A stretch of 24,000 nucleotides of DNA from Mycobacteriales bacterium (GCA_035545535.1 DASZYF010000155.1:1-24000); one strand, 5' to 3'; positions 4,339 to 12,303 are shown, counted from the stretch's first letter. A program made the numbers and translations. Notes: generated from the sequence alone by a model not told the origin.

Positions 4339-5647
4339 CCGCGGCGACCTCGAGCCCCACTGGTCCCACAGGCCTCACCCGTCCCACGGCCTGGACGAAG
4401 AGCGCGGCGACCACGGCGAGGCCGCCGGCGACCGCGAACGCGAGGGTGTAGCTGCCCTCCGCGCCCCGGACCGCACCGGCCGCCCAGGCGGCGACGGCCG
4501 CGCCGAGCTGGTGGCTGGCGAAGACCCAGCCGAACACCACGCCGGCCCGTTCCGGGCCGAACGCCCGGGCGCACAGCGCCACCGTGGGCGGCACGGTGGC
4601 GACCCAGTCGAGCCCGTAGAACAGCGCGAACGGCAGCAGGCCCGCGTGGTGGCCCTGGCCGAGCGCGCTCGGTAGCAGGATCAGCGAGAGGCCGCGCAGG
4701 CCGTAGTACCAGAACAGCAGGCGCCGCGGCTCGATCCGGTCGGTCAGCCAGCCGCTGGCCATCGTCCCGGCCACGTCGAACACACCCATGAGCGCGAGCA
4801 GGCCCGCCGCGGTGGTCTCCGGGATGCCGTGGTCGACGCAGGCCGGGATGAGGTGGGTGCCGATGAGGCCGTTCGTGGTGGCTCCGCAGATCGCGAACGA
4901 GCCCGCGAGCAGCCAGAAGTCCTTGCTCCGCACCGCGATCCGCAGGCCGTCGAACGCCGCGGCGATGGGGTTGCCAGCCGCCCCCGCAGGCGCGTCGTCC
5001 TCCGTGGCGCCGTAGGCGCGCAGGCCGATGTCCTCCGGGCGGTCGCGCATGAGGAGGGCCACGAGCGGCCACACGAGCAGCGCTCCTCCGGCGACCGCGA
5101 TGGAGGCCGACCGCCAGCCGTGCTCCTTCACCAGCCAGGCGAGCAGCGGCAGGAACGCGAGCTGCCCCGTGGCGCTCGCCGCCGTGAGCGTGCCGGTGAC
5201 CAGGCCGCGCCGCGCGACGAACCATCGTGTGGCGACCGTTGCCGCCAGCACCGTCGCCATGCAGCCCGTGCCGGTCCCGACCACCACGCCCCAGAGCAGG
5301 TAGAGCTGCCAGGGCGCGTTGATGCGCGCAGTCAGCGCCGATCCGGCCGCGACGAGCATCAGAGCGATGAGCACCACGCGCCGGATGCCGAACCGCTGCA
5401 TCAGCGCGGCGGCGAACGGCCCGGCCAGGCCGAAGAGCACGAGGTTGATCGAGACGGCCACGCCGATCGTCGCCCGGCTCCAGCCGAACTGGTCCTGCAG
5501 CGGCACGATGAGCACGCCGGGCGCGGAGCGGAAGCCGCTGGCGCCCATGAGCGTCACGAAGGTCACGGCGGCGACGATCCAGGCGTAGTGGCGGCCGACC
5601 TTGGCCGGTGCGGCCGGGTCGGTCGCCGGTGCTGTCACACCGTCCAT
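4334..5647 (-). CDS. MFS transporter (oxalate/formate-antiporter or monocarboxylate-porter-like subgroup)
   Basis: About 12 hydrophobic segments. The N-terminal region YAWIVAAVTFVTLMGASGFRSAPGVLIVPLQDQFGWSRATIGVAVSINLVLFGLAGPFAAALMQRFGIRR resembles OFA/MCT-type MFS proteins. Start set at ATG 5647, because codons 5648-5707 of the tracked ORF have many A/T third positions. Confidence 0.85.
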   Translation of the reverse strand: MDGVTAPATDPAAPAKVGRHYAWIVAAVTFVTLMGASGFRSAPGVLIVPLQDQFGWSRATIGVAVSINLVLFGLAGPFAAALMQRFGIRRVVLIALMLVAAGSALTARINAPWQLYLLWGVVVGTGTGCMATVLAATVATRWFVARRGLVTGTLTAASATGQLAFLPLLAWLVKEHGWRSASIAVAGGALLVWPLVALLMRDRPEDIGLRAYGATEDDAPAGAAGNPIAAAFDGLRIAVRSKDFWLLAGSFAICGATTNGLIGTHLIPACVDHGIPETTAAGLLALMGVFDVAGTMASGWLTDRIEPRRLLFWYYGLRGLSLILLPSALGQGHHAGLLPFALFYGLDWVATVPPTVALCARAFGPERAGVVFGWVFASHQLGAAVAAWAAGAVRGAEGSYTLAFAVAGGLAVVAALFVQAVGRVRPVGPVGLEVAAV

Positions 5648-5741
5648 CACACCGGAGAAGGTCCGCGGAAGTCGATCACATTCCCGGGCGGCCCCGAGAT
5701 GTGGCAAGACCGCTGGCCGAAAGGGCGTGCGCGGCAGCGAT

Positions 5742-5747
5742 TAGCGT
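5742..5747 (+). promoter_or_regulatory. Candidate -10 hexamer for a leaderless transcript of the four-gene operon
   Basis: TAGCGT (TANNNT) ends 8 nt before GTG 5756, and no Shine-Dalgarno precedes that GTG. The heptamer TAGCGTC is identical to the one in both Rpf-like leaders. Confidence 0.3.
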
Positions 5748-5755
5748 CACGTCTC

Positions 5756-8056
5756 GTGGGCATCCGCAGCGGCCTCGCGAACAAACGGCTGCTGCTCACC
5801 GGCACCACCGGCTTCGTCGGGGAGGCCCTGCTCGAGCGGATCCTCTCCGAGCTCCCGGACACCCGGGTCGTGCTGGTCGTGCGCCCGCAGGGCAGGAAGA
5901 GCGCCCGTGCGCGCGTCGAGGAGCAGCTCCGCACGAAGAGCGCGTTCGCCGGGCTGCGCACGCGGCTCGGTGACGACGCGCTCGTCGCCCTCCTCGACTC
6001 GCACGTGGACGTCATCGAGGGCGACCTCGGTGCGCCGCTGCCCGCGCTGCCGTCCGACCTCGACGTCGTCATCCACTGCGCCGGCGAGGTCACGTTCGAC
6101 ATGGCCATCGACGAGGCGTTCCGCGCGAACCTCCTCGGCGCGCAGAGCCTGCTCGACGCCGTGCGCGCCTCCGGGTCGACACCGCACTGGCTGCACGTCT
6201 CCACCGCGTACGTCGCCGGCCTGACGTCGGGCTGGGTGCCGGAGGCGCGGCACGCACACGAGGTCGACTGGCGGGCGGAGTGCGCCGCAGGCCTCGCGCT
6301 GCGCGACCGCGTCGATCTCGACAGCCGCGTGCCCGGCGTGCTCGGGCCGCTGCTCGACGAGGCGCGCGCGGCACAGGGCCGGGCCGGTTCGAAGGGCGTC
6401 GCCGACGAGGCCGAGCGGCTGCGCAAGCGGTGGGTGCACAAGCGCCTGGTCGAAGCCGGCTTGCAGCGCGCTCAGAGCCTCGGCTGGACCGACGCCTACA
6501 CGTTCACCAAGGCGCTCACGGAGCGCATGACCGAAGAGCTCTGCGCCGACTGGGGCGTGCCGCTCACCGTCGTGCGCCCGACCATCGTCGAGAGCGCGCT
6601 CACCACGCCGCACCCCGGCTGGATCGAGGGCTTCAAGGTCGCCGAGCCGATCATCCTGGCCTACGGGCGCGGTCAGCTGCCCGACTTCCCGGCCGCGCCG
6701 GACACGGCGATGGACATCGTCCCCGTCGACATCCTCGTCGCGGCGATGCTCGCGGCCGCGGCGACGCCCCCCGCCGTCGACGCGCCCGCGTACTACCAGG
6801 TGGGGTCGAGCGCGCGGAACCCCCTGCGGTTCCTTCAGCTGTACACGAGCGTGCGCCACTACTTCCAGCAGCACCCCATGCCCAAGCGCGAGCGCGGCAC
6901 CGCGGGCGTGCCCACGTGGCAGTTCGCGAGCGAAGCGTCGATCGAACGCAAGCTGCAGCTCGCCGAGCGCGGGCAGCGGTGGGCCGAGAAGGCCGTCGGT
7001 GCGCTGCCGCAGAGCGACCGGTCGCGGTCGTTGGTCAACAAGGTCGACGCGCAGGCCAGCGGGCTGCGCCAGGTGCGCAAGCTCGCCGACCTCTACCGCG
7101 CGTACACGCAGGCCGAGGTCGTCTACACCGACGACAACGTCGTCGCGCTGCTGCGGTCGCTCCCGGAAGCCGAGCAGCGCGACTTCCCGTTCGACGTCGC
7201 CGTCATCGACTGGCACCACTACCTCACCGAGCTGCACTGCCCGGCGGTGACGGCCGGCCTTCGGTGGCTCGATGCGATCCCGATGCCGGCGCCGAAGCCG
7301 CTGCCCGAGCTCGCCGCCCGCCCGGCCGCGACCGACGACGGTCAGGTCATCGCCGCGTTCGACCTCGACGGCACGCTCGTGAAGAGCACGGTGGTCGAGG
7401 CCTACCTCTGGACGCGCCTGGCGGATCTCGGGGGCCGCGACCGGGTGCGCGAGGTCGGAGCGGTGCTCGCGTCGCTGCCCGGCTGGATCAGGTCCGACCG
7501 CGTGAACCGCAGCGCGCTGCTGCGCTCCCTCTACCTGCGGTACGCAGGCGCCGACCTGCTCGAGCTCGAGCGGCTCGTGGACGACGACATCGCGGGTGTG
7601 GTCCTGCAACGCGTCAGCGCCGCGGCACTGCGGCGCGTCCGCGAGCACCGGGCGGCCGGTCACCGCACCGTGCTCGTCACCGGAGCGCTCGACGTGCTCA
7701 CCCGTCCGCTCGCGCCGTTGTTCGACGAGATCGCCGCAGTGCATCTGATCACCGATGCGCACGGGATCGCGACGGGTCGGCTCGCGGAGCCGCCGCTCGT
7801 CGGCGAGGCGCGTGGTGCGTGGCTGCGTCGGCGCGCGGGCGTCGCGGGCTGGGACCTCTCCGCGTCCTACGCGTACGCCGACAGCCACTCCGACCTGCCG
7901 ATGCTGCGGGCGGTCGGCCATCCGGTCGCGGTGAACCCCGACGCCGACCTGCTGCGCATCGCGAAGCGGGGCAGCTGGCCGGTCGAGACGTGGCCGGTGT
8001 CGAAGGCCATCCCGGCGATCCAGCTGCCCGAACGCACTGCATCGGTGTGGGGGTGA
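5756..8056 (+). CDS. Fusion protein: N-terminal fatty acyl-CoA/ACP reductase (NAD_binding_4 'male sterility' SDR) plus C-terminal HAD-IB (SerB-like) phosphatase
   Basis: N-terminal half: LLLTGTTGFVG (TGxxGxxG Rossmann) and GWTDAYTFTKALTE (YxxxK in the PNTYTFTKAL context typical of FARs). C-terminal half: AAFDLDGTLV (DxDGT motif I), VLVTGAL (motif II) and YADSHSDLPML (motif IV, HAD-IB style). Start set at GTG 5756, because codons 5699-5755 have low GC3 (caa, aaa, cga, tta, tca, cgt). ATG 5699 is the alternative. Confidence 0.85.
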   Translation: MGIRSGLANKRLLLTGTTGFVGEALLERILSELPDTRVVLVVRPQGRKSARARVEEQLRTKSAFAGLRTRLGDDALVALLDSHVDVIEGDLGAPLPALPSDLDVVIHCAGEVTFDMAIDEAFRANLLGAQSLLDAVRASGSTPHWLHVSTAYVAGLTSGWVPEARHAHEVDWRAECAAGLALRDRVDLDSRVPGVLGPLLDEARAAQGRAGSKGVADEAERLRKRWVHKRLVEAGLQRAQSLGWTDAYTFTKALTERMTEELCADWGVPLTVVRPTIVESALTTPHPGWIEGFKVAEPIILAYGRGQLPDFPAAPDTAMDIVPVDILVAAMLAAAATPPAVDAPAYYQVGSSARNPLRFLQLYTSVRHYFQQHPMPKRERGTAGVPTWQFASEASIERKLQLAERGQRWAEKAVGALPQSDRSRSLVNKVDAQASGLRQVRKLADLYRAYTQAEVVYTDDNVVALLRSLPEAEQRDFPFDVAVIDWHHYLTELHCPAVTAGLRWLDAIPMPAPKPLPELAARPAATDDGQVIAAFDLDGTLVKSTVVEAYLWTRLADLGGRDRVREVGAVLASLPGWIRSDRVNRSALLRSLYLRYAGADLLELERLVDDDIAGVVLQRVSAAALRRVREHRAAGHRTVLVTGALDVLTRPLAPLFDEIAAVHLITDAHGIATGRLAEPPLVGEARGAWLRRRAGVAGWDLSASYAYADSHSDLPMLRAVGHPVAVNPDADLLRIAKRGSWPVETWPVSKAIPAIQLPERTASVWG

Positions 8057-8060
8057 TCGC

Positions 8061-9224
8061 GTGAAGGCCGTCGAGGTCTACCGCTCGGTGCCGCGGTACG
8101 TCGCGACCCGGGTGCTGACGCAGCGCACGCCCCTCGCGCAGGGACTGGCCCCCGTGCGCTACGTCGACCGGCGCGAGCCGTCGCTGCCCGGTGACGGCTG
8201 GGTGCGCGTGAAGCCGCTGCTCTCGGGCATCTGCGGCAGCGACCTCGCCACCGTGAGCGGCTCGTCGTCGTTCTACTTCTCACCGCTCGTCTCGATGCCG
8301 TTCACCCCGGGCCACGAGGTGCTCGGGGAGCTCGAGGACGGCACGCGGGTCGTGCTCGACCCGGTGCTCGGCTGCGCGGCCCGCGGCCTCGACCCGTGCG
8401 CGTCGTGCGCGGCGGGTGCGACGTCGCGCTGCGACCGGGTGACGCTCGGGCACGTCTCGCCCGGCCTGCAGACCGGTTTCTGCGCCGACACCGGCGGCGG
8501 GTGGTCCGGCGGTCTGGTCGCGCACACCTCGCAGCTGCACGTCGTTCCCGGCGACCTGCCCGACGAGCGGGCTGTGCTGGCCGAGCCGCTCGCGTGCGCG
8601 GTGCACGTCGCGCGGCGCAGCGGCATCGAGAAGGACCAGAGCGTGCTCGTCGTCGGAGCGGGCGCCGTCGGCCTGCTCACGCTGCTCACCGTGCGCGCGC
8701 TCACGCCGGCCGGCCGCATCACCGCTGTCGCGAAGCACCCGAAGCAGACCGCGCTCGCCCGCGAGCTCGGCGCCGACGAGGTCGTGGGGCCGTCGGCGGT
8801 CGTGCGGGGCATCCGGCGCAGCACCCGCGCGGTCGTCGTCAGCCCGGAGCGCGGTCGCGACTACCTGCTCGGCGGCGTCGACGTGTCCATCGAGTGCTCG
8901 GGCAGCTCCACCGGGCTCGACACCGCGGTGCGCACCACGCGCGCCGGTGGCCGCGTGGTCCTCGCGGGGCTGCCGACGAGCGGTGTCGACCTGACGCCGG
9001 TCTGGTACCGCGAGCTCGAGGTCGTCGGCGCCTACGCCACGCACGCCGGAGACTTCGCGACCGCGCTCGAGCTGCTCAGCGACGAGCGCCTCTCCGGCCT
9101 GACGACGTCGTTCCACCCCCTCACGCGCTGGCGTGAGGCGATCGACGAGGCGGCCTCCGCGGGCCGGCTCGGACTGGCGAAGGTCGGCTTCGACCTGCGT
9201 GACGGTGAAAGAGGTGCCGCGTGA
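8061..9224 (+). CDS. Zn-dependent medium-chain dehydrogenase/reductase (sorbitol/threonine dehydrogenase-like)
   Basis: GICGSDL and PFTPGHEVLGE (catalytic Zn ligands), a Cys cluster GCAARGLDPCASCAAGATSRCD (structural Zn) and VLVVGAGAVGLL (NAD(P) fold). GTG 8061 lies 4 nt after the upstream stop. Confidence 0.9.
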   Translation: MKAVEVYRSVPRYVATRVLTQRTPLAQGLAPVRYVDRREPSLPGDGWVRVKPLLSGICGSDLATVSGSSSFYFSPLVSMPFTPGHEVLGELEDGTRVVLDPVLGCAARGLDPCASCAAGATSRCDRVTLGHVSPGLQTGFCADTGGGWSGGLVAHTSQLHVVPGDLPDERAVLAEPLACAVHVARRSGIEKDQSVLVVGAGAVGLLTLLTVRALTPAGRITAVAKHPKQTALARELGADEVVGPSAVVRGIRRSTRAVVVSPERGRDYLLGGVDVSIECSGSSTGLDTAVRTTRAGGRVVLAGLPTSGVDLTPVWYRELEVVGAYATHAGDFATALELLSDERLSGLTTSFHPLTRWREAIDEAASAGRLGLAKVGFDLRDGERGAA

Positions 9225-10801
9225 CCCGACCAGGCTTCGTGCTGGAGGTGGACGAGCGCACGCCGCCGCTGCTCGTGCACTCCGGTGAGAGCTTCCGCCT
9301 CGAGCGCTTCCCGCTCGGGACCCGGGTCATCTACCCCGCCGAGTCGCTGCCCGCGCTGCCTGACGTGCCCGCCGCCATCGCCGACGCGCTCGACAACCCG
9401 CTCGGCGACTCCAAGCCGTTGCGCGAGCTGCTGTTCTCCGGCATGCGCCTCACCATCGCGTTCGACGACATCAGCCTGCCCCTGCCGCCGATGCGCACGC
9501 CGGACATCCGCCAGCAGGTCATCGAGCAGGTGCTCGAGCTGGCCGCACGCGCGGGTGTCGACGACGTGCAGCTCATCAGTGCGAACGCGCTGCACCGCCG
9601 GCTGACCGCCGGCGAGCTCAAGCGCATCGTGGGGGAGCGGGTCTTCCGCTCGTTCTACCCCGAGGCGCTCGTGAACTTCGACGCCGAGGACCGCGACAAC
9701 CTCACGCACCTCGGGGTCACGCCGCACGGCGAGGACGTCGAGATCAGCAAGCGCGCCGCGGAGAGCGACCTCCTCGTCTACGTCAACGTGAACCTCGTCG
9801 CGATGGACGGCGGCCACAAGTCCACATCGATCGGCCTCGCGTCCTACAACTCACTGCGACACCACCACAACCCGCACACGATGACGCACTCGCGGTCCTT
9901 CATGGACCCGCGGCACTCCGAGATGCACAAGTCCGCATGGCGCATGGGCAAGGTGCTGCAGAGCAACGTCAAGGTCTTCCAGATCGAGACCACGTTGAAC
10001 AACGCCGCGTTCCCGTCGCAGTACGGCTTCCTCACCAAGCGCGAGTGGGAGTGGTCGGTCAAGGACCAGGCCATGGCGGTCGGGATGTCCAAGAGCATCG
10101 ACCGGCTGCCGGCGCAGCTGCGCCGCAAGGTCTTCCGCGACATCGTGGCCGACTACGGCGTCACCAGCGTGCAGGCGGGCGAGATCGAACCCGTGCACGA
10201 GCGCACGTTGCAGCACGTGCATCGCCAGCAGCTCGTCGAGGTCGAGGGTCAGACCGACGTGGTGGTGTTCGGCTTGCCCTACATAGGCCCGTACAACGTC
10301 AACAGCGTCATGAACCCGATCCTCACGATGTGCCTCGGGCTCGGCTACTTCTTCAACATGTACCGGAACAAGCCGCTCGTCCGGAAGGACGGCGCGATCA
10401 TCCTGTTCCACCCCACGCCGTGGGAGTTCAGCCAGCTGCACCACCCGAGCTACGTCGACTTCTTCGAGGAGGTGCTCACCGCGACCACCGATCCGGCGGT
10501 CATGAGCGAGCGCTTCGAGAAGCAGTACGCCGAGGACGAGTGGTACCGCCACCTGTACCGGACGAGCCACGCGTACCACGGCGTGCACCCGTTCTACATG
10601 TGGTACTGGGGCGCGCACGCGCTCGACCACGTGCAAGACGTCATCTACGTCGGTGCGGACCGGAAGTCCGTGGAGCGCATGGGCTTCCGCACCGCGTCGT
10701 CGTTGCGGGACGCGCTCGCGATGGCGAGCGGCAGCGTCGGCAGCGACCCCTCGATCACGTACCTCCACTCGCCGCCGCACATCCTCGCGGACGTGCGATG
10801 A
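9221..10801 (+). CDS. LarA-like protein (DUF2088 / lactate-racemase N-terminal domain family), 526 aa
   Basis: NALHRRLTAGEL and VAMDGGHKSTSIGLASYNSLRHHH resemble the LarA blocks GTHR..T.EE and GFSGGRKS..PG.AS...I..NH, as I recall them. GTG 9221 overlaps the upstream TGA (GTGA), with GAAAGAGG 6 nt upstream. Confidence 0.8.
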   Translation: MTRPGFVLEVDERTPPLLVHSGESFRLERFPLGTRVIYPAESLPALPDVPAAIADALDNPLGDSKPLRELLFSGMRLTIAFDDISLPLPPMRTPDIRQQVIEQVLELAARAGVDDVQLISANALHRRLTAGELKRIVGERVFRSFYPEALVNFDAEDRDNLTHLGVTPHGEDVEISKRAAESDLLVYVNVNLVAMDGGHKSTSIGLASYNSLRHHHNPHTMTHSRSFMDPRHSEMHKSAWRMGKVLQSNVKVFQIETTLNNAAFPSQYGFLTKREWEWSVKDQAMAVGMSKSIDRLPAQLRRKVFRDIVADYGVTSVQAGEIEPVHERTLQHVHRQQLVEVEGQTDVVVFGLPYIGPYNVNSVMNPILTMCLGLGYFFNMYRNKPLVRKDGAIILFHPTPWEFSQLHHPSYVDFFEEVLTATTDPAVMSERFEKQYAEDEWYRHLYRTSHAYHGVHPFYMWYWGAHALDHVQDVIYVGADRKSVERMGFRTASSLRDALAMASGSVGSDPSITYLHSPPHILADVR

Positions 10802-10805
10802 GCGC

Positions 10806-10839
10806 GGCGTCATGAGGAGCACGGCGTCATGAAGAGCAC
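10806..10839 (+). repeat. Tandem 17-nt duplication spanning the start of the acyltransferase gene
   Basis: GGCGTCATGAGGAGCAC (10806-10822) and GGCGTCATGAAGAGCAC (10823-10839) differ at one base. Copy 1 supplies GAGGAG as the Shine-Dalgarno and an ATG (10812) that opens a 6-codon ORF (MRSTAS). That ORF ends in ATGA, overlapping the real ATG at 10829. Confidence 0.85.
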
Positions 10840-11728
10840 CGTCGCGCAGCTCGCGCGCGACTTCCGCTGGGGCCACCGCCCGGCGGTCCCGCGCGACGCG
10901 GTGCCGCACATCAAGGCGGCGAAGGCGACCGAGTTCCCCACCGCGTGGGCGCGCACGCCCGCGGCGCGGGCCTTCCGCACGGTCGCGCAGGACGTCGGGC
11001 TCGCCGCGCTCATCAAGGCCGAGGTGAAGCTCGTCGTCACCGGCCGCGACCGGCTGGCTGCGCTGGGCGAGCAGCCGTGCGTCATCGTCTGCAACCACAG
11101 CTCGCACCTGGACACGGCCGCGCTGATCTGCGCGCTGCCGCCGGAGTGGCGCCGGCGCACCGCGGTCGCGGCGGCGGCGGACTACTTCTTCGATGCGTGG
11201 TGGCGTGCGGTCGGCACCGCGCTGGTGTTCGGCACCGTGCCCATCGAGCGGCGCGGCGGCGTGCCGTCGCAGAAGCCGGGCGAGCTGCTGGACGACGGCT
11301 GGAACGTCGTGGTCTTCCCCGAGGGGACGCGTTCACCGGACGGCTGGATGCACGAGTGGAAGACCGGCGCCGCCCGGCTCGCCATCGACCACGGCGTGCC
11401 GGTGCTGCCGGTGGCGATCCGCGGTACGTTCGCCGCGATGCCGCGCGGGCGCTCGTGGCCCAAGCCGGGCCGCCCGCCCGTGCACATCCGGTTCGGCCGT
11501 CCGCTCGCACCGGGCCGCGACGAGGACCCGAAGGCGCTGCTCGGCCGGATGCGCGAGGAGCTGGCCCGGGTCGTCGACGAGGACACGTCCGGCTGGTACG
11601 CGTCGCTGCGCAAGCAGGCCGAGGGCCGGACGCCCGACCCCGCCGGCCCCGAAGCGTCCCGGTGGCGCCGCACCTGGGACGCCAGCGCGCCCCCGGTCAA
11701 GCTCGACCGAGGGCGCGTCTGGAAGTAG
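10829..11728 (+). CDS. PlsC/LPLAT-family acyltransferase (1-acyl-sn-glycerol-3-phosphate acyltransferase-like)
   Basis: VCNHSSHLD (HX4D catalytic motif), VVFPEGTRS (motif III) and VPVLPVAIRG (motif IV). ATG 10829 has GAGGAG 8 nt upstream. Confidence 0.9.
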   Translation: MKSTVAQLARDFRWGHRPAVPRDAVPHIKAAKATEFPTAWARTPAARAFRTVAQDVGLAALIKAEVKLVVTGRDRLAALGEQPCVIVCNHSSHLDTAALICALPPEWRRRTAVAAAADYFFDAWWRAVGTALVFGTVPIERRGGVPSQKPGELLDDGWNVVVFPEGTRSPDGWMHEWKTGAARLAIDHGVPVLPVAIRGTFAAMPRGRSWPKPGRPPVHIRFGRPLAPGRDEDPKALLGRMREELARVVDEDTSGWYASLRKQAEGRTPDPAGPEASRWRRTWDASAPPVKLDRGRVWK

Positions 11729-11762
11729 GTGCGGGGCCCCAGGGGGGGATGAGGCCCCGCAC
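11729..11762. terminator. GC-rich hairpin between convergent genes, a possible bidirectional terminator
   Basis: GTGCGGGGCC (11729-11738), a 14-nt loop, then GGCCCCGCAC (11753-11762): a perfect 10-bp stem starting 1 nt after the acyltransferase stop. No U-tract. Confidence 0.55.
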
Positions 11763-11808
11763 GTCTGGCTGTGGCTGGGGAGAGGGGATCACCTCAGCCA
11801 AGGAGAAG

Positions 11809-12303
11809 TCAGCTCAGGCCGAGGTAGCGCGAGCAGGCCGGCCACGGCTGCCAGCCGCGCTGCGCGTGCAGGCGGACGACGGCCTGGTCCTGCTTCCACG
11901 CCGGAGCGTCCGACGCGACGCCCGCGTAGCCGAGGCCGCGCCAGGTGCCGTAGTCGAACTGGTAGGCGCCGTAGAAGCCGTTGCCGGTGTTGGTGCGGTA
12001 GTTGCCACCCGACTCGCAGCCGCGCAGCGCGCGCATCGGCTTCACCATCGACGCCGGGACGACGAAGTGGTGGGCCTTGCGCGCGTGCCGGCGCTTGGCC
12101 TTGTGACGGGTCGCCGGCTTGGCGGCGGGCTTGGCAGCAGGCGCCGCCGCGGTGGTGCTCGCGGCGTTCGTCGTCGCTGCGGTGTGGGTTGCCCCGAACG
12201 CGTCGGCCGGCGAGACCGTCAGCGCTGCCGCTGACAGGGCCGCGGCCGCCGCGAGCGACGGGCGGATGCGGGCGCGCAGAGGCGCGCCGGTGTTCCGGTG
12301 CAC
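11809..12303 (-). CDS. Secreted Rpf-like (transglycosylase-like domain) muralytic protein, copy 2
   Basis: LRGCESGGNYRTNTGNGFYGAYQFDYGTWRGLGY...WPAC is paralogous to copy 1. It has a signal-like N-terminus (RPSLAAAAALSAAALTVSPADA) and an Ala/Lys/Arg-rich linker. Start set at GTG 12303-12301, with GGGAG 7 nt upstream. The 12304-12582 part of the tracked ORF runs through the riboswitch. Confidence 0.85.
   Translation of the reverse strand: MHRNTGAPLRARIRPSLAAAAALSAAALTVSPADAFGATHTAATTNAASTTAAAPAAKPAAKPATRHKAKRRHARKAHHFVVPASMVKPMRALRGCESGGNYRTNTGNGFYGAYQFDYGTWRGLGYAGVASDAPAWKQDQAVVRLHAQRGWQPWPACSRYLGLS

Follow-up and report, generated by a model that had tools for sequence, protein, structure and literature searches.

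The elb operon of Myxococcus xanthus (MIBiG BGC0000871; Lorenzen et al. 2014), elbABCDE, corresponds to MXAN_1531-1527 (PMC13012113), with elbC being MXAN_1529. Alkyl and vinyl ether lipids are lost in elbD and elbE mutants, the two genes on which the mutant evidence is based, and the AGPS route of M. xanthus (MXAN_1676) is minor (PMC9131029). The FAR and acyltransferase (AT) activities of ElbD could not be demonstrated in vitro, and the formation of the ether bond in the elb pathway has been a standing question since 2014 (PMC9131029). ElbC is described as being of 'unknown function' in reviews (PMC9131029, PMC13012113). Some sponge-symbiont elb-like clusters hold only elbD and elbB, and ElbC may therefore be dispensable.

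In the nickel-pincer literature, MXAN_1529 was placed in LarAH group 15 (Desguin 2020, Table S3), and groups 14 and 15 were both entered as uncharacterised and without a substrate. Group 14, which includes Frankia Franean1_4168, has the signature D-x-H-(no His174)-K-H, with R75 replaced by I/L, K298 by N and Q295 falling in a gap, and a gene context of COG0204, COG0560, COG1063 and COG3320 (Desguin et al. 2020). Table S1 of that study already lists the COGs for acyltransferase, HAD, MDR and thioester reductase as co-occurring with this group. No connection between the elb ether-lipid field and the nickel-pincer field was found in the searchable literature.

Organization of the operon and comparison with elb

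The operon was found in a 24,000-nucleotide stretch of DNA, the whole of which is referred to as the window (Table 1). The four genes had a GC3 of 0.94-0.97 and were located on the same strand. The fusion gene and the MDR gene were 4 nt apart (TGA-TCGC-GTG), the MDR and LarA-like genes had overlapping stop and start codons (GTGA), and the LarA-like and acyltransferase genes were separated by a 27-nt spacer with GAGGAG ahead of the ATG. The FAR::HAD-IB gene showed two candidate starts, the GTG at 5756 and an in-frame ATG at 5699. An earlier sequence-only reading of this DNA had described four co-directional genes with these spacings, and this was found to be correct in every respect, as were its placing of all quoted motifs and its domain calls: profile-HMM searches gave NAD_binding_4, Sterile and HAD (TIGR01490) for the fusion, ADH_N and ADH_zinc_N for the MDR, Lar_N for the LarA-like protein and Acyltransferase for the last protein. 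The 10-bp GC hairpin that it placed at the end of the block is present (GTGCGGGGCC...GGCCCCGCAC; predicted RNA fold -26.9 kcal/mol), yet it is unremarkable for the local G+C (z = -1.6; 14 out of 200 shuffles fold equally well). Its stem did not fit the T-tract terminator pattern, and the sole terminator-like match within 5500-12000 was located away from it on the minus strand (11822-11809).

Table 1. Coordinates of the operon genes, their motifs and selected residues, and the downstream inverted repeat, counted from the first nucleotide of the window.
Feature	Position	Strand	Remarks
FAR::HAD-IB fusion, 766 aa	5756..8056	+	FAR part aa 1-~520 (NAD_binding_4 + Sterile C-terminal domain); HAD-IB part aa ~533-766
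FAR motif TGTTGFVG	5798-5821		aa 15-22
FAR motif YTFTK	6497-6511		aa 248-252
HAD-IB motif DLDGT	7361-7375		aa 536-540
HAD-IB motif DSHSDLPML	7880-7906		aa 709-717
Zn-dependent medium-chain dehydrogenase (MDR), polyol-dehydrogenase type, 387 aa	8061..9224	+	ADH_N + ADH_zinc_N
MDR motif GICGSDL	8226-8246		Zn/NAD motif
MDR motif PGHE	8307-8318		Zn/NAD motif
MDR Cys cluster	8370-8432		C105...C124
MDR motif GAGAVG	8655-8672		Zn/NAD motif
LarA-like protein, LarAH14/15/16 family, 526 aa	9221..10801	+	NF052592; Pfam Lar_N; MXAN_1529 match
LarA-like residue D83	9467-9469		codon
LarA-like residue H125	9593-9595		codon
LarA-like residue N191	9791-9793		codon
LarA-like residue K200	9818-9820		codon
LarA-like residue H216	9866-9868		codon
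LarA-like residue Y358	10292-10294		codon
LarA-like residue H456	10586-10588		codon
PlsC-family (HX4D) acyltransferase, 299 aa	10829..11728	+	Pfam Acyltransferase 7.8e-25
Acyltransferase motif NHSSHLD	11093-11113		
Acyltransferase motif FPEGTR	11315-11332		
10-bp perfect GC-rich inverted repeat, possible terminator	11730..11762	not assigned	between convergent acyltransferase and Rpf-like genes

The fusion protein matched the Pfam domains NAD_binding_4 (3.6e-45), Sterile (2e-9) and HAD (2e-28), and the closest solved structure was the fatty acyl-CoA reductase 7EOZ (6e-48). The HAD-IB part contained the DxDxT nucleophile motif and the motif IV acidic pair (DSHSD, aa 709-713) and scored 100.8 bits against the subfamily model TIGR01490 (cutoff 98.3). 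Pairwise comparison with the Elb proteins aligned the FAR part to ElbD residues 7-539 (28% identity, 4e-49), the HAD part to ElbB (34% identity, 2e-27), the acyltransferase to ElbD residues 1183-1404 (30% identity, 1e-25) and the LarA-like protein to MXAN_1529 over its full length (48% identity over 521 aa). At the sequence level, these four were thus shown to be homologous to ElbD-N, ElbB, ElbD-C and ElbC, respectively. The MDR gave no BLASTP match to the Elb proteins, including ElbA and ElbE. It contained a catalytic Cys/His/Glu Zn site, a structural Cys4 cluster and GxGxxG, and its best NCBIfam and PDB relatives were L-idonate 5-DH, threonine 3-DH, sorbitol DH and ketose reductase, with no equivalog cutoff reached. 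In these nearest relatives, the position oxidised or reduced is C2 of a polyol or polyol phosphate.

In M. xanthus, the elb genes stand in the order SDR, HAD, Lar_N, NAD_binding_4-AMP-binding-PP-binding-Acyltransferase, SDR. Both operons contain a FAR, an HX4D acyltransferase, a HAD phosphohydrolase, a LarA-like protein and one NAD(P)-dependent dehydrogenase, and neither contains AGPS. They differ in that FAR is fused to HAD in the operon described here but to ACS-ACP-AT in ElbD, that the acyltransferase is encoded by a separate gene instead of forming the C-terminal part of ElbD, that a Zn-MDR takes the slot of the SDR ElbE (ElbA and ElbE both being SDRs), and that the host belongs to the Actinomycetota. 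The domain search detected no AMP-binding (acyl-CoA-synthetase) or PP-binding (ACP) domains of ElbD in the four proteins; because ACS-ACP is missing and MDR replaces SDR, the pathways may differ. The sequence-only reading was not aware of any characterised pathway composed in this way. This does not hold, as domain-by-domain homology links the operon to M. xanthus elbB-E, with elbD and elbE mutants being devoid of ether lipids; a homologous cluster with a published function, which that reading had itself named as counting against it, weakens the claim of novelty. What is new here is the actinobacterial variant, while the elb operon itself and the table of LarAH co-occurrence were already known.

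For analysis of conservation, 80 related loci were compared, drawn from at least 594 matching stretches of species genomes, mostly Actinomycetota. As far as the contigs extend, the five domains were present in the same order and on the same strand in all 80 loci with three exceptions: one without the MDR (L080), one without a HAD match (L043) and one with a frameshifted HAD (L017). The MDR was found in 77 and the acyltransferase in 79 of the loci. The flanks were not common to the loci, and a FadD-like gene was located upstream in only about 8 of them. This shared order between unshared flanks shows co-occurrence far above chance, a check for which the sequence-only reading had called, and across Actinomycetota the four genes are kept strictly together as a tightly coupled unit.

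The LarA-like protein and the nickel-pincer cofactor

The LarA-like protein scored 896.9 bits against NCBIfam NF052592 (cutoff 740) and 1e-37 against Pfam PF09861 (Lar_N), contained the motif GGHK...HHH and was about 72% identical to Frankia/Parafrankia members of group 14. It shares the signature and gene context of that group and differs from it in nothing material. Judged from these matches, it is an orthologue-level relative of M. xanthus ElbC and a 'single catalytic histidine' LarA homologue. The nearest solved structures by both sequence and fold were the NPN-loaded, single-His proteins LarA_Sp and LarA_Bw of group 17 (9Q2U, 9Q3K, 9Q3J), and the AF2 model (pLDDT 91.5) showed its best fold match with 9Q3K (TM 0.77/0.84). 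The window protein shares with them an Asn for His174, the Lys-thioamide and His-Ni sites, equivalents of Tyr307 and His401, and an enlarged C-terminal domain. However, identity is only about 20%, K76 and H306 are replaced by L86 and P357, and the gene context of LarA_Sp and LarA_Bw is glycolytic/triose-phosphate, whereas that of the operon here is lipid-related.

The NPN-tethering Lys and the Ni-ligating His (K184 and H200 in LarA_Lp) are present as K200 and H216, whose aligned counterparts in NPN-loaded LarA_Sp are K195 and H211, and the ribose-binding Asp and one catalytic His (H125) are retained. In a 36-sequence alignment D83, H125, K200, H216, Y358, H453 and H456 were invariant and N191 nearly so. 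Of the two catalytic histidines that racemisation needs (H108 and H174), the first is present as H125, whereas the second was not found in the LarA-like protein, which has N191 there, or a gap in the Desguin alignment, and the residues binding the carboxylate of 2-hydroxy acids (R75, Q295, K298) were not kept, R75 being replaced by L86. The racemisation or epimerisation of 2-hydroxy acids, which the sequence-only reading had cited for the LarA family, is unlikely for this protein, which lacks both the second catalytic His and the Arg/Lys that binds the carboxylate; besides, the Frankia orthologue supplied with NPN showed none of seven racemase/epimerase activities. The same reading's view of the LarA-like protein as the odd, uncharacterised step was borne out.

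L86 also stands where the Arg/Lys binding the NPN phosphate would be. Together with the failure to find larB, larC and larE in the 24-kb window or any lar genes within 10 kb of the M. xanthus elb locus, the inactivity of the NPN-supplied Frankia protein on its seven substrates and the loss of the tethering Lys in LarAH group 16 paralogues, this would fit a protein working without NPN, as a cofactor-less scaffold or a lipid-binding subunit of a FAR/acyltransferase complex. We regard this as very improbable, given that K200, H216, D83 and H125 are invariant in LarAH groups 14 and 15, which span two phyla, that full larB, larC and larE sets directly adjoin the cluster in 12 of the 80 loci from several genera (following right after the acyltransferase gene on the same strand in L036), and that the LarA-like protein is the best-conserved member of the operon (median identity 68% compared to 49-55% for the others). 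The LarA-like protein, like ElbC, is probably a nickel-cofactor enzyme. The link between ElbC and LarA is supported by two results, the retention of the cofactor-binding residues in ElbC and the company of larBCE in which the cluster occurs in actinobacteria, and it suggests ElbC, as a LarA homologue, as a candidate for the missing ether-forming chemistry.

Every characterised LarA homologue inverts a C2 stereocentre, and the LarA_Sp equivalents of the invariant H453, H456 and Y358 lie over the cofactor, beside ligand density. The LarA-like protein could be a genuine epimerase acting at C2 of a glycerol-phosphate lipid or its precursor (for instance sn-G3P to sn-G1P, or inversion of alkyl-G3P), with a relocated second acid/base residue, for instance H456 or Y358 in the C-terminal domain, the ether step being carried out by other proteins. 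This appears quite improbable: Asn or a gap stands at the position of the canonical second His, the authors of the single-His structures envisage at most a unidirectional conversion, and no other ether-forming candidate (AGPS, Ger/PlsA-like) was conserved in or near the cluster.

Proposed route to 1-O-alkyl lipids

The operon is rather probably an actinobacterial, domain-reshuffled form of elb, its most likely products, judged from the homologies above, being 1-O-alkyl-glycerol(-phosphate) lipids made without AGPS. The resemblance to ether-lipid synthesis in the absence of an AGPS homologue, as proposed in the sequence-only reading, is the best-supported reading of the locus. No FAD-dependent alkyl-DHAP synthase (AGPS) domain was detected in the window genes or in conserved flank genes. 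Like the eukaryote-type/MXAN_1676-1674 route (FAR, GNPAT, AGPS and acyl/alkyl-DHAP reductase), the operon has a FAR, a dehydrogenase of the ketoreductase type and an HX4D acyltransferase, and both presumably end in 1-O-alkyl-G3P; where that route has the FAD-dependent AGPS, the operon has a HAD phosphatase and a LarA-like protein. When the two M. xanthus operons are set side by side (AGPS, FAR-AT and SDR versus HAD, LarAH, FAR-ACS-ACP-AT and SDR), LarAH falls in the AGPS slot, and the LarA-like protein with HAD would hold the position that AGPS has in the other ether-lipid operon.

In the proposed route, the FAR would make a fatty aldehyde or alcohol by reducing acyl-CoA/ACP, and the acyltransferase (PlsY in Rubrobacter) would provide an acylated glycerol-phosphate backbone. 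The LarA-like enzyme may, via NPN, take the C2 hydride from the glycerol-3-phosphate moiety, giving a transient 2-keto (DHAP-like) species that would allow or accompany formation of the ether bond at C1, after which the hydride would return to C2 or be placed on the aldehyde-derived carbon, leaving alkyl-DHAP. Reduction of the 2-keto product to 1-O-alkyl-G3P would fall to the polyol-type MDR, or to ElbE in the case of myxobacteria, and the HAD-IB domain would strip a phosphate from a lipid-phosphate intermediate. That ElbC/LarAH14 is an NPN enzyme forming or directly enabling the alkyl ether bond of glycerolipids by a redox-neutral C2 hydride shuttle, as a non-flavin replacement of AGPS, is put forward tentatively, as a possible but doubtful mechanism. 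As a separate observation, an obligatory phosphatase would have no explained role if the products were phospholipids, which is a point against an elb-type reading.

The plant GPAT4/6 enzymes are acyltransferase-phosphatases that make monoacylglycerol, and FAR, acyltransferase and HAD phosphatase together follow the domain logic of wax and cutin pathways. The operon could accordingly make ester-only neutral or surface lipids, with the FAR supplying fatty alcohol, the acyltransferase and HAD giving either monoacylglycerol or esters of the wax type, and a head group or hydroxy substituent being modified by the MDR and the LarA-like protein; ElbD homologues are present in Pontiella, in which ether lipids were not found. 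Nevertheless, this explanation is considered unlikely, as the operon has homology, domain by domain, with a cluster whose disruption abolishes ether lipids, no wax synthase (WS/DGAT) was conserved in the flanks of the 80 loci, and the cluster is carried by Rubrobacter, the Rubrobacterales reportedly being dominated by 1-O-alkyl mixed ether/ester lipids.

If the mechanism proposed for ElbC and the LarA-like protein is true, nickel-pincer catalysis would reach beyond 2-hydroxy-acid racemisation into lipid synthesis, and ether-lipid formation is predicted to need nickel. Many Actinomycetota of soils (Frankia, Nocardioides, Kribbella, Micromonospora, Actinomadura, Acidimicrobiia and Rubrobacter) would then make 1-O-alkylglycerol lipids in a nickel-dependent way that has gone unrecognised; we know of no ether-lipid report for the first four of these. 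Non-isoprenoid monoalkyl glycerol ethers are reported to be environmentally widespread and are used as biomarkers, and the at least 594 cluster-bearing stretches would name their likely sources. In Rubrobacter radiotolerans and relatives the order was shown to be plsY-FAR::HAD-MDR-LarAH, and in these Rubrobacter-type loci (L083-L085) a PlsY upstream of the FAR replaces the PlsC-type acyltransferase.

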